DNA of 64,000 bases, from the NCBI RefSeq assembly GCF_000026545.1, contig NC_011601.1; one strand, written 5' to 3'. The first letter of the stretch is position 1; each line of letters starts with the position of its first letter. A model generated the notes under the pieces. It saw only the letters and a program-made list of their open reading frames with translations. It had not been told where the DNA came from and ran no database searches. Origin of the DNA: Escherichia coli O127:H6 str. E2348/69 (GTDB taxonomy: Bacteria; Pseudomonadota; Gammaproteobacteria; Enterobacterales; Enterobacteriaceae). The position numbers and the translations under genes are program-made. This document shows, in pieces, positions 11,900-15,108 of the stretch.

Positions 11900-12856
11900 T
11901 TATTTGATTTGATAATCGATGGACAAGCTGTACCCCTGCACGCCATCATCGCCGAGAGTAAGGCTGGAGCTGTTGAATGCAGTACCCGCTTCGGAGTTGG
12001 TTGCCGGAATAACCAGTGCAGTGTTGTTCCAGGTATCTTTAACCACACCACCCGCAGTACCGTGCGCGCTGGTGCCGGAGAAGCGCCAACGGTAGTCGTA
12101 CTGGCTGGTAACATCCTCGCCTGTATCAACTTTGTTGTTGTTGTTCGCATCAGAGTACAGGATGACACTGTAGGAGGTTTTCGTCGCCAGAATGTCCGTA
12201 GTACCCAGCAGGTTTTTCTTATTAGTGTCATCTGTTTTGTAAATAACAACTTTCACATTGTTATCAACAACCGGACCGGCTGGGATATCATCGCTTGCAG
12301 AACCACCACCATCACCAGAACCGGAACCATCACCTGTGCCATCACTGCCACCGGAACCATCATTGTCACCCGGACCATTAGTAATATCTGCCAGCGTCAA
12401 CTCTGCACCCACAGCCGGAATACCGGTCGCGGTGGTAGGGGTAATTTTGATACCAATTTTTTTACCCGCATCAGCGCTGGTGAGGGTATAAGTTTCGCCT
12501 TCGGCTCCGCTAATTTCCTGACCATTACGCAGCCACTTAATGGTAGCTTTGGTCGACGCATCATTAGCATCGGTATCGCCTTCAGCATCAGCGAGTCCCC
12601 AATGTACCGTCACTTCATCACCAACAGCCAGTTGTGCTGTTGATTTGCTGCCACCGCGTTTTGCACTAATACTAACGTGGTGATCAACAGGTGTCGCGGA
12701 AGTGTCCTGAATCCACGGTACCGTACTGTTAATTGCGCCAGTACTCTCGGTCACAGTGGTCCATGCTGCAGATGCAATTGCAGGAATGGCACAATACCCC
12801 GCAACAGCCAACGCCAGCACAACCTTTCTTAAATTACGATTACTTTCCAGTTTCAT
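11900..12856 (-). CDS. sinI: SinI-like secreted protein with Gly/Ser/Asp-rich linker
   Basis: 318 aa; signal peptide; SD 'aggaga'; C-terminal 'YDYRWRFSGTSAHGTAGG...ATNSEAGTAF...DGVQGYSLSIDYQIK' is paralogous to the C-terminus of the upstream inverse autotransporter. Confidence 0.65.
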   Translation of the reverse strand: MKLESNRNLRKVVLALAVAGYCAIPAIASAAWTTVTESTGAINSTVPWIQDTSATPVDHHVSISAKRGGSKSTAQLAVGDEVTVHWGLADAEGDTDANDASTKATIKWLRNGQEISGAEGETYTLTSADAGKKIGIKITPTTATGIPAVGAELTLADITNGPGDNDGSGGSDGTGDGSGSGDGGGSASDDIPAGPVVDNNVKVVIYKTDDTNKKNLLGTTDILATKTSYSVILYSDANNNNKVDTGEDVTSQYDYRWRFSGTSAHGTAGGVVKDTWNNTALVIPATNSEAGTAFNSSSLTLGDDGVQGYSLSIDYQIK

Positions 12857-12903
12857 TACTACTATCTCCTTGGTTACCCTTCAGCCACAGCCATATTGCA
12901 TTG

Positions 12904-15108
12904 CTACGCTGATTTTTGCTTTTCGCTATAAACCACACGAATCCCATATCCCTGCACGCCATCACGCTCCTCTGCATCAAATTTCGATGCGGCTTCCTTG
13001 TTGGTGGCTGGTAGAATCAAATCCTCATTTATCGTATTCGCTTTCGCGCCAGTAGAACCGTGTGCGCTTTTACCTGTAAATTCCCACTCATAGTCGTAAC
13101 GCGCTTTTTCTTCTTCAGTCAGTTTTTCCGACTGCTGATAAATGCCATCGTTATTGGAATCACGCCACATCACGAAACGATAACCAGATTTCAGAGGGAT
13201 CGGTTTTGCATCACCGGCAAGATTTTTCGGGCTGCTTTCCTCAAGCCGATAAATAAAGCCATTAATGCCGCCAACATTTGCAGTGTTGGTAAAAGTAACA
13301 TCCACAAAGTTCGAGTCGCTATACGGTTCCGCCTTCACTTTCCAACGGAAAGTCCCCGGCAGCGTACTGGATAAGGTAATAGTGCCCTTCTCTTTATCGC
13401 GCTTAGCAATGAAGACACACGGTGTTTCAGTGACGCAGGGTTTGGTGTTCAGCGTCACTTTCTTGTCGTTTTCATCGTACAGTGTCGGTGTCACCCCTGT
13501 TTCAGGTAAGGTGTTCCCGTTTTTGTCAGTGTTATCACCAAAACTGTCAGTGATATGCATATCCATGACAACACCATCGCTGCCATCGGCTTTGGCTTCC
13601 GCTTGATAGCTGTGATTGTTATCCGCAGGGACACTGAGAACATGGTTAACAATCAGTTCGATCTTACGATCCTGTTTCACCACAATTTCGACGACACCTG
13701 AGTTTTGGCGGTTACCTTTCTCATCTTCCAGTGCAAGGCGCACACGCCAGGTATTAACCTTCTCTTGCTCTTCTTTGGTTGATGCACTTTGCCAGGCCGG
13801 CAGTACCAGGTTCCAGCGGTTGTTATTACCTTCCGTCAGTGCATTCGCTTTCACAACAGGCATGACTAACGTGCGGTTAGCATTATTTTTCGCCTGCCAT
13901 GATGCCGCGACGATTTTGTAGTGGTTATTAATGAGAGCGTTAATCGTCCACTTGCATTTTTCCAGACCTACGGCCAGCTCCGGTGTATCTTTTACGATAC
14001 ATTCTGGATGTTCATTCGCAGTATCGGCTTTCAGCCACAGCGTCACATCAAGCGGATCTTGTTCACGATATTCCAGAACAATGAAATTATTACGTTCCAC
14101 GAAGTCATGACGACTACCCATTAACGAATGTTTAGCTTTAACATTGTCAGGATCTAATTGATCCTTCAGTGGCATACCTATCTGATAATTTAGGGATACA
14201 TTGACACTTAAATCAGAATTATCACCCGTACCGGATTTATAATCTGAACCTACGGTAAATAGCGGCACAGGGTTATACATTAATCCGACGGTTAACGCCT
14301 GGGGATTTTTTTCCAGGTTATCGGTGCCGAATAGCGCAACTTCATCACCGTAATATTGTTCGTAAACCAGCTTTGCACCGAACTGCGGCCATGCTGGCAA
14401 CCACCCTTCAGCCCGGACATCCCAGCCGCGCGCTGGTCGTTCTTCGTAAAAGTCGAAATCTTTTGAATCTTTCCAGTCTGAAAGTGGATGGTAATAGTTT
14501 CCGGAAAACTTCAGATAGTCGGTCCAGGCTTCGCTACCCAGCCCCAAGCGACGATGACCGCGAGTAAAGTCATAGTCATAAAACAGGTTGCCGCCAAGCA
14601 ACCAGCTACCAATGTTCTGGCGTACACCAACCCCAATGTTACCGATGGTTCGGTCGTCTTTACGTTGTGCAGAGAACTGGCTGAAAACGAGTGTTTCCTG
14701 GTTATCATACCAGGGGACAAAGTAGTCAAAAGTGCTGCCATCCAGGTCGCCACCTTCTCCTATAGACAAGCTGGTTCTGACAGAACCATAAGGCGACAAG
14801 ACGTTCTCAAGATAAGACTGAGCAGTGGACGTCACCTGCTCTTTCGCATAGCTTTCAGCCTGAGCCTTCAGGGCCTCGGGCGTTAGATTTTCAAAACCTT
14901 GCGTGGCGGAGCTTATAAAATAACCCTGAGCTTTACCGCCTAAAGCACCTTTTTCATCTTTGCTGTTTGATTTTTCACTACTACCTAAATCAGGAAGTGT
15001 ATTAGGGCTATCAGTAGAACTGATATTTGTTGGTTCCACCTTTCCTTCTGATGCCCATGAAGCACTTGCCCATATAATAGAAAAAAGCACTGGAGACCAA
15101 CGCAACAT
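12904..15108 (-). CDS. sinH: Inverse autotransporter adhesin (intimin/invasin family), SinH-like
   Basis: 734 aa; signal peptide; beta-barrel region ('DYFVPWYDNQETLVFSQFSAQRKDDRTIGNIGVGVRQNIGSWLLGGNLFYDYDF') typical of the intimin/invasin beta-domain; location between xseA and der matches the Salmonella CS54 sinH locus. Confidence 0.75.
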   Translation of the reverse strand: MLRWSPVLFSIIWASASWASEGKVEPTNISSTDSPNTLPDLGSSEKSNSKDEKGALGGKAQGYFISSATQGFENLTPEALKAQAESYAKEQVTSTAQSYLENVLSPYGSVRTSLSIGEGGDLDGSTFDYFVPWYDNQETLVFSQFSAQRKDDRTIGNIGVGVRQNIGSWLLGGNLFYDYDFTRGHRRLGLGSEAWTDYLKFSGNYYHPLSDWKDSKDFDFYEERPARGWDVRAEGWLPAWPQFGAKLVYEQYYGDEVALFGTDNLEKNPQALTVGLMYNPVPLFTVGSDYKSGTGDNSDLSVNVSLNYQIGMPLKDQLDPDNVKAKHSLMGSRHDFVERNNFIVLEYREQDPLDVTLWLKADTANEHPECIVKDTPELAVGLEKCKWTINALINNHYKIVAASWQAKNNANRTLVMPVVKANALTEGNNNRWNLVLPAWQSASTKEEQEKVNTWRVRLALEDEKGNRQNSGVVEIVVKQDRKIELIVNHVLSVPADNNHSYQAEAKADGSDGVVMDMHITDSFGDNTDKNGNTLPETGVTPTLYDENDKKVTLNTKPCVTETPCVFIAKRDKEKGTITLSSTLPGTFRWKVKAEPYSDSNFVDVTFTNTANVGGINGFIYRLEESSPKNLAGDAKPIPLKSGYRFVMWRDSNNDGIYQQSEKLTEEEKARYDYEWEFTGKSAHGSTGAKANTINEDLILPATNKEAASKFDAEERDGVQGYGIRVVYSEKQKSA

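Follow-up and report, generated by a model that had tools for sequence, protein, structure and literature searches.

The sinH-sinI junction of Escherichia coli E2348/69 and a slowly varying inter-domain linker in SinI

The sinH-sinI locus

The window analyzed is a 64,000-nucleotide stretch of contig NC_011601.1 from E. coli E2348/69 (EPEC), in which RefSeq already names both sinH and sinI. As listed in Table 1, sinI is located directly downstream of sinH on the same strand. This arrangement is also found in other E. coli, Salmonella, Citrobacter and Rahnella loci, and the close adjacency of the two genes is kept in five genera. The gene names given in an earlier note on this DNA proved correct, both products being above curated NCBIfam cut-offs. 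SinH scores 1397.5 bits against a cut-off of 999 (NF033423, inverse_SinH), and SinI scores 280.2 bits against 165 (NF040711, partner_SinI), with its residues 7-315 aligned to positions 2-299 of the 299-position profile. The beta-barrel of SinH covers residues 68-341 (Pfam PF11924, IAT_beta, E = 1.7e-107).

The third gene encodes a RatA-like protein with two BIg21 and two InvE_AD domains (Pfam). The region separating it from sinI folds with a minimum free energy of -39.7 kcal/mol (z = -6.1), and its two hairpins are kept in other alleles with compensatory changes. A scan of positions 9300..15800 against Rfam at E <= 1 gave no RNA family in the sinH-sinI junction or in the sinI to rat-like spacer. 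The terminator-like hairpin and T-run found 3' of the rat-like gene is probably the end of the operon. The genes sinH, sinI and rat-like probably form a single transcription unit; the locus would be that of an adhesin of type Ve (inverse autotransporter).

Table 1. Features of the sinH-sinI-rat-like locus (positions in the window)
Feature	Coordinates	Strand	Description
sinH	15108..12904	minus	734 aa, intimin-like inverse autotransporter; stop TAG 12906..12904; ORF and RefSeq annotation
sinH-sinI spacer, CAATGCAATATGGCTGTGGCTGAAGGGTAACCAAGGAGATAGTAGTA	12857..12903	minus	exactly 47 bp
Shine-Dalgarno (SD) sequence AAGGAGA	12871..12865	minus	8 nt upstream of the sinI ATG
sinI	12856..11900	minus	318 aa, SinI-family autotransporter-associated protein; RefSeq WP_000764547.1
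Probable Sec signal peptide	12767..12856	minus	SinI aa 1-30; basic n-region, hydrophobic core, ASA before the likely cleavage site; read from sequence
SinI N-terminal beta-sandwich domain	12383..12682	minus	aa 59-158; putative A9/AIR9-type Ig-like (PF23197; related: SCAB-Ig PF16709)
Gly/Ser/Asp inter-domain linker, GPGDNDGSGGSDGTGDGSGSGDGGGSASDD	12376..12287	minus	SinI aa 161-190; predicted disordered
13-nt repeat TGATGGTTCCGGT, copy 1	12350..12362	minus
13-nt repeat TGATGGTTCCGGT, copy 2	12320..12332	minus	30 bp downstream of copy 1
GGTTCC-GGTTCT hexamer pair	12317..12328	minus	site of the +6 bp (+Gly-Ser) duplication
SinI C-terminal domain	11903..12286	minus	aa 191-318; homologous to the SinH C-terminal domain; AF2 pLDDT about 90
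sinI to rat-like intergenic region	11791..11899	minus	two strong conserved hairpins
rat-like gene	9508..11790	minus	760 aa, RatA-like adhesion-domain protein; NCBIfam and RefSeq start
Terminator-like hairpin and T-run	9458..9477	minus	3' of the rat-like gene

The junction and the start of sinI

The short spacer and the strong SD containing 'aggaga' are both present as previously described, and the sinH stop codon lies 32 nt upstream of this SD. The heptamer AAGGAGA is not enriched as such in the window (4 copies observed, 4.1 expected); what sets this copy apart from chance is where it lies and the fact that divergent alleles and genera retain it. The motif TTAAYCAAGGAGA is kept in five E. coli alleles and AAGGAGA is also kept in Salmonella and Citrobacter, while the other spacer bases drift and the spacer length ranges from 38 to 59 bp across the same alleles and genera. 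Since the SD is strong and conserved, sinI could be initiated independently, without the re-initiation proposed in the earlier note. Translation of sinI most likely begins at its own SD on a polycistronic mRNA.

Co-transcription of sinH and sinI, which that note had also put forward, is well supported. A consensus scan of the coding strand found no terminator-like or sigma-70-like site within the spacer or shortly before it, and the layout of the junction is kept across genera. Moreover, co-transcription in strain CFT073 is reported, with reference to Shea et al. 2022, in a review (PMC12525524). The fold of the E2348/69 spacer does not go beyond that of shuffled sequence (z = -0.29). Other alleles have a modest hairpin 3' of the sinH stop codon, with z as low as -1.9; as it has no U-run, it was rejected as a terminator.

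A separate promoter for sinI, within the spacer or the last part of sinH, is unlikely; on this reading, the closeness of the two genes would be a matter of compact packing and not of an operon. The promoter scan was limited to sigma-70-like sites, and the divergence of SinI, far greater than that of SinH (see below), could fit a partly independent regulation. However, several hundred bp upstream of sinI are devoid of any promoter-like pair on the minus strand, the nearest hexamer pair being at 14113..14086. The lack of a terminator after sinH, the close adjacency of the genes in five genera and the CFT073 report also speak against a separate promoter.

Domain architecture of SinI

Judging from its N-terminal sequence, SinI is probably exported by the Sec pathway. 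Its first 58 residues are modeled by AF2 with pLDDT below 50, and Cys22 is invariant across the family. The N-terminal domain is one putative copy of the A9-type Ig repeat known from giant bacterial adhesins. It also aligns weakly, over residues 65-199, with the ZirU family NF040485 (E = 3.5e-9); at 37.1 bits against a cut-off of 100, SinI is not a member of that family.

The C-terminal domain is related to that of SinH: residues 204-318 of SinI and 618-730 of SinH are 34% identical (BLASTP, E = 2e-20), and the two domains give reciprocal cross-matches in NCBIfam. No match to the PF11924 beta-barrel was found in SinI with Pfam. A PDB sequence search with SinI returned no homologue of its folded domains, the matches being restricted to engineered Gly-Ser linkers in fusion proteins. 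SinI is a two-domain, probably exported protein whose C-terminal domain is paralogous to that of SinH, and, by analogy with the ZirTSU system, its display may depend on SinH. In amino-acid identity by region, SinI (44-60%) diverges much faster than SinH (57-83%); SinI and the C-terminal domain of SinH both diverge much faster than the barrel.

The inter-domain linker

The low-complexity Gly/Ser/Asp linker with GGN/GAY codons, singled out in the earlier note, is indeed present: GGN accounts for 13 of its 30 codons and GAY for 7, or 20 of 30 together. In the AF2 model, residues 161-189 have pLDDT below 50 and are flanked by two confident beta domains. The linker is therefore predicted to be an intrinsically disordered segment joining two folded domains, for which it would serve as a tether.

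The richness in Gly and Asp, the presence of GxGD-like strings and the conservation of the acidic DDDD end across the SinI family are features expected if the linker bound calcium, as an RTX-like or acidic loop, became ordered on the cell surface and set the domain spacing. This is nevertheless very improbable. An RTX-like repeat was rejected, as the linker lacks the hydrophobic position of the nonapeptide GGxGxDxUx. Moreover, no repeat family was matched in Pfam or NCBIfam, the AF2 linker is unstructured, and the linker length is unequal between close alleles.

At the DNA level, the disordered tether is encoded by a weakly repetitive tract. TRF detected two arrays with an 18-bp period, of about 2 copies each with 81-84% match, at scores of 52-53 that barely exceed the default cut-off. 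No exact direct repeat exceeds 13 nt, and the one of this length occurs twice. An antisense ORF rich in Pro, Ser and Glu (12258..12491) was rejected as a gene, being the complement of the Gly/Ser/Asp codons.

Linker length across relatives

Of the 82 SinI clusters recovered, about 65 have a linker of invariably 11 residues, which reads TNAGGGADDDD in most of the family. Members similar to those of Rahnella have a 7-residue linker, and expansion to 23, 30 or 32 residues is limited to the E. coli clade of E2348/69, which itself has 30. The near-universal 11-residue length hints at a length constraint. The gene length of 966 bp is kept in nearly all of the 46 genomes with a full-length 11-residue-linker allele; among those listed, the only exceptions are two 1-bp losses.

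The E2348/69-type allele is rare, being found at a DNA identity of at least 86% in 8 of 5426 complete E. coli genomes, and its product is only 44-48% identical to SinI of the common alleles. The seven complete genomes with the E2348/69 allele, including three independent E2348/69 assemblies, all have the same linker length, at 98.9-100% identity with the full 1004 bp in one aligned piece. From the E2348/69-type SinI cluster (52 members), 13 of the 15 protein variants listed are 318 aa long. The Rb-50 clade has a 23-residue linker in all 11 members. The 32-residue linker results from a clean duplication of GGTTCC, found in protein variant P0090 and in four loci (L003-L005 and L010) whose haplotypes are identical or nearly so; L010 and L003 match at 100%. 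A pattern scan of metagenomes (roughly 69-99 nt) yielded three loci, two with a 30-residue linker and one with a 32-residue linker, too few for frequencies.

Between SinI alleles that are 88.5% identical in DNA, the linker is the sole site of insertion or deletion, with a difference of 7 residues. The linker changes observed are -21 bp and +6 bp, all multiples of 3. The only other SinI indel seen is the loss of one residue in a poly-Asn run.

Slow in-frame variation of the linker

The earlier note had suggested comparing linker length across strains, identical lengths everywhere being taken as evidence against slipped-strand variation. In the assembly consensus sequences compared here, lengths of 23, 30 and 32 residues occur, so the suggestion survives this comparison. 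It holds for a slow evolutionary process, as illustrated by the GGTTCC duplication and the length alleles, and fails for a hypermutable tract, given the clonally fixed length classes and the short, imperfect repeats. With length classes that are clonal and stable and such limited repeats at the DNA level, the linker is a hotspot of slow in-frame indels rather than a contingency locus. Antigenic variation through the SinI linker, also raised in that note, finds no support.

A contingency tract, in which GGN/GAY codons slip often and an exposed adhesin partner thereby varies in length or antigenicity within a population, would account for the existence of three length alleles, for the clean hexamer duplication behind the +2-residue change and for the linker being the main indel site of SinI. 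It would not be expected to consist of about two imperfect copies with exact repeats of at most 13 nt. Nor does it agree with the equal lengths in all seven genomes at 98.9-100% identity, the confinement of the +6 allele to one haplotype and the uniformity of the 23-residue clade. Furthermore, all changes are in frame and hence give no on/off switching. The probability of such a tract is considered very small.

According to the slow-hotspot reading, the tether would have started at 11 residues and grown to 23-32 in the E2348/69 clade by small in-frame duplications, probably by slippage during replication or because short direct repeats misaligned. Length changes would be rare, heritable and clonal, without a programmed high-frequency switch, and the linker would remain the main indel-tolerant spot of SinI. 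The reading as a whole, namely an operon, a SD proper to sinI, a two-domain SinI with a disordered tether and rare clonal in-frame length changes, is held with good confidence. It is improbable that tether length is under lineage-specific selection. In that case, the threefold change from 11 to 30 residues would alter how far, or in what geometry, a ligand-binding A9-type Ig domain extends from a C-terminal domain docked on SinH, and the repetitive tract would go on producing length variants, with effects on adhesion or escape from antibodies.

Comparison with known systems

The operon, both protein families and the analogy with ZirTSU are already annotated or published. The locus is similar to SinH/SinI of the Salmonella CS54 island and to the E. 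coli ila/iatB locus, with the same order of yfgJ/zinc-ribbon gene, sinH, sinI and rat-like (PMC4943183, PMC6714894). The likeness extends to both proteins exceeding the NF033423 and NF040711 cut-offs, to the C-terminal paralogy of SinI and SinH, and to the short junction with its conserved SD. Unlike CS54 and the common ila alleles, the E2348/69 allele is rare, its linker has 30 residues instead of the near-universal 11, and its rat-like gene is short (760 aa). In ZirTSU of Salmonella, the beta-barrel IAT-like ZirT is likewise followed by small barrel-less Ig-fold partners, ZirS and ZirU, which share the passenger's Ig-like domains. The analogy, including transporter-dependent export of the partner, was explicitly proposed before (PMC4943183, PMC6714894), and IatB functions in biofilm formation without its downstream partner (PMC6714894).

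Three points are added here: a linker that is fixed at 11 residues in most Enterobacteriaceae SinI proteins but reaches 23-32 in a single rare E. coli clade, to which the EPEC prototype strain belongs; a putative single A9-type Ig copy as the N-terminal domain of SinI; and the fast divergence of SinI and the SinH C-terminal domain relative to the barrel. Their overall significance is small. They may guide the design of constructs that probe the docking of SinI on SinH or its export by SinH.

The Ser-Asp stalks of staphylococcal Clf/Sdr proteins are built from near-perfect dipeptide repeats, numbering from tens to hundreds, and their length is highly variable. The SinI linker is similarly an acidic, Ser/Gly-rich unstructured spacer with repetitive codons, and differs in length between strains through in-frame gain or loss of repeats. 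However, it has 30 residues, imperfect repeats and three length classes, and it separates the two domains of a small partner protein that is probably periplasmic or secreted. In contingency loci such as Neisseria opa (CTCTT) and the Haemophilus tetranucleotides, the repeats are perfect and present in many copies, their changes alter the reading frame or the spacing of the promoter, and sibling colonies differ. The likeness to these loci is the proposed slipped-strand mispairing on repeated DNA in a surface-protein gene. The SinI linker shares none of their features: neither a long near-perfect tract, nor a length differing among close isolates, nor a frame or promoter shift was found in it. 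Engineered (Gly-Ser)n linkers, the sole PDB sequence matches of SinI, are disordered and flexible in the same manner. Unlike them, the SinI linker is natural and Asp-rich, and its many Asp residues give it a net negative charge.

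Locus and gene content

Three independent assemblies of E. coli E2348/69 (O127:H6, EPEC) each contain the 1004-bp sinI region at 100% identity. RefSeq names the three minus-strand genes sinH, "SinI family autotransporter-associated protein" and "adhesion domain-containing protein", and the cluster is flanked by a yfgJ-like zinc-ribbon gene, which adjoins xseA, on one side and an IS4 remnant on the other. Both SinH (1397.5 bits, equivalog cut-off 999) and SinI (280.2 bits, cut-off 165) exceed their NCBIfam thresholds. The feature is a correctly read but ordinary part of a known, annotated operon. 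The E2348/69-type module is rare: a DNA search found it in 8-10 of 5426 complete genomes.

Features of the sinH-sinI-rat region
Feature	Position	Strand	Remarks
sinH	15108..12904	minus	734-aa ORF
SinH beta-domain	aa 68-341		PF11924 IAT_beta, E 1.7e-107
SinH C-terminal SinI-like domain	12904..13275	minus	diverges together with paralogous SinI
sinH-sinI spacer	12857..12903	minus	exactly 47 bp
Shine-Dalgarno AAGGAGA	12871..12865	minus	8 nt before sinI ATG
sinI	12856..11900	minus	318-aa ORF
Linker	SinI aa 161-190, nt 12376..12287	minus	30 residues; 20/30 codons GGN or GAY
sinI to rat-like spacer	11791..11899	minus	two strong hairpins; MFE -39.7 kcal/mol, z = -6.1
First hairpin, AATGCCACTTCC-TTCG-GGGAGTGGCATT	11891..11864	minus
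Second hairpin, ATACTTTGCTTAAT-CAACC-ATTAAGCAAAGTAT	within 11791..11899	minus	perfect 14-bp inverted repeat
RatA-like gene	11790 (RefSeq start) to 9508	minus	ORF and RefSeq

Near the sinH island, and separated from sinH by an HTH regulator and the IS4 remnant, RefSeq annotates a Hailong anti-phage system (halA effector and nucleotidyltransferase-domain protein, ~17065..18847, minus). E. coli Rb-50 (L001, NZ_AP025682.1 1368242-1381222) carries two tandem sinH-sinI modules whose alleles differ: one resembles that of E2348/69, the other belongs to the common type, and a rat-like and a zinc-ribbon gene lie in between. In E. coli O145:H28 RM9872 (locus L007), the annotation lists sinH as a frameshifted pseudogene beside an intact sinI; two further O145 strains have a sinI match that falls short by 1 bp.

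SinI domains and the inter-domain linker

An AF2 model built with a 49-sequence family alignment gave two confident beta-rich domains in SinI (aa 59-158 and 192-318), while pLDDT fell below 50 at residues 1-58 and 161-189, the second stretch being exactly the linker. The N-terminus resembles a Sec signal peptide: it has a basic n-region and a hydrophobic core, and ASA precedes the probable cleavage site. Within this predicted peptide, Cys22 (~12791..12793, motif VAGYC) is present in every one of the 49 aligned family members; VAGYC is not a canonical lipobox because of the Tyr at position -1. The C-domain shares 34% identity with its counterpart at the C-terminus of SinH (E 2e-20), and the two give reciprocal NCBIfam cross-hits; the relationship has been known since Kingsley et al. 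2003, cited in PMC4943183. SinH and SinI have been proposed to work like ZirT/ZirS/ZirU (PMC4943183, PMC6714894), which is a published analogy. SinI itself scored 37 bits, well below the ZirU-family cut-off of 100, and is therefore not a ZirU member.

The earlier note had described a short spacer with a Shine-Dalgarno (SD) site and a Gly/Ser/Asp linker; all were located as claimed, so that every part of that observation is correct. It had also proposed slippage in the linker as a possible source of length or antigenic variation. Among 82 homologous SinI clusters, about 65, from Salmonella, Citrobacter, Kluyvera, Leminorella and other E. coli, carry a linker of precisely 11 residues that reads TNAGGGADDDD or nearly so, one has 13, and Rahnella-like members have 7; more distant representatives bear Gly/Pro/Asp-rich linkers of differing lengths. 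The E2348/69 clade alone departs from the 11-residue pattern: the linker here has 30 residues, that of the Rb-50 clade 23. The conserved tail, GGGSASDD, lines up with GGGSDSDD of the ancestral form, so the additional residues represent an insertion upstream of the tail. The E2348/69 and Rb-50 sinI genes share 88.5% DNA identity, and their single indel, of 21 bp, lies within the linker.

In the 90%-identity cluster of E2348/69 SinI, 13 of the 15 members listed (52 in total) are 318 aa long. Variant P0090 (320 aa) has an extra Gly-Ser within the linker, produced by a one-unit hexamer duplication (GGTTCC GGTTCT to GGTTCC GGTTCC GGTTCT); P0092 (317 aa) is one Asn shorter in a poly-Asn stretch of the C-domain. 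This stretch (aa 238-241, DANNNNK, ~12134..12145) is the sole indel site outside the linker. A metagenome pattern scan yielded three loci, two with a 30-residue linker and one with 32 residues and the duplication of P0090. Linker length is thus not identical in all alleles, and slippage-type events have clearly occurred.

The 32-residue allele lies on the same or a near-identical haplotype at all four loci carrying it, which fits a single ancestral event: L010 and L003 show 100% identity across 3.6 kb, and 22 substitutions separate L010 from the nearest 30-residue locus, L009. The linker is 23 residues in 11/11 Rb-50 cluster members, and each of the seven complete genomes carrying an E2348/69-type allele (98.9-100% identity) aligned in one piece across the full 1004 bp. 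For a control allele with an 11-residue linker, the 966-bp gene was kept in nearly all of 46 full-coverage genomes, the only exceptions among the rows listed being two 1-bp losses. Every linker change is in frame. These comparisons of length between genome assemblies point to slow and heritable change.

The linker DNA is weakly repetitive, with two TRF arrays of 18-bp period (~2 copies, 81-84% match, scores 52-53); no exact direct repeat in it is longer than the 13-mer TGATGGTTCCGGT, which occurs in two copies 30 bp apart. Slippage-type events have altered its length on occasion, but the tract lacks the high repeat number, perfect copies and instability between isolates of contingency loci. 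The linker is an acidic tether, predicted to be disordered, that lengthened in one lineage and accommodates occasional small in-frame indels.

The sinH-sinI junction

Neither a terminator-like hairpin nor a sigma-70-like hexamer pair was found on the coding strand in or near the spacer, and the first terminator-like site downstream of the junction is at 9477..9458, past the rat-like gene. Folding of the spacer RNA gave no more structure than shuffled sequence (z = -0.29). AAGGAGA occurs 4 times in the window against 4.1 expected, so its significance rests on context and not on frequency. Across five divergent E. coli alleles the spacer ranges from 47 to 56 bp and differs in sequence, with TTAAYCAAGGAGA kept directly before the ATG. 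AAGGAGA is also kept in Salmonella (57-bp spacer) and Citrobacter (38-bp spacer); Rahnella has a 59-bp spacer and a weaker SD site. The order sinH, sinI, rat-like or other gene is constant across the E. coli, Salmonella, Citrobacter and Rahnella loci examined. A 2025 review (PMC12525524) reports co-transcription of sinH and sinI in UPEC, with reference to Shea et al. 2022. Taken together with the review, the lack of a terminator- or promoter-like site and the conserved SD and gene order support co-transcription well, which makes it probable for the E2348/69 allele. The accompanying suggestion of re-initiation at sinI exceeds the evidence: as 32 nt separate the sinH stop codon from the SD, it is simpler to assume that ribosomes initiate in the ordinary way at this strong site of a polycistronic mRNA, 70S scanning being inseparable from it by sequence alone.

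Divergence between alleles and the sinI-rat spacer

Set against the commoner xseA-der allele, SinH keeps 79-83% identity across the barrel and mid-passenger but 57-62% in its C-terminal domain, and SinI keeps 44-60%, depending on the region. Evolution is thus fastest in the parts presumed to be exposed or to contact a partner. The joint divergence of the SinH C-terminal domain and SinI would fit either co-evolving partners or shared diversifying selection.

Both hairpins of the sinI to rat-like spacer are conserved in Rb-50 and kept with compensatory changes in the 14EC033 allele, which has a REP-like insert between them. The spacer hairpins lack a U-run, and no Rfam family was found for them. 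They could act in mRNA processing or stability, serve as an attenuator, or be an operator setting the SinI to Rat ratio. Three Rb-50-clade SinI variants (P0002, P0100 and P0105) have lost the stop codon and reach 329 aa, through an 18-residue extension (…DYQIIMTNATSLGEWYYQHTLLN) that runs into the hairpin-containing spacer.
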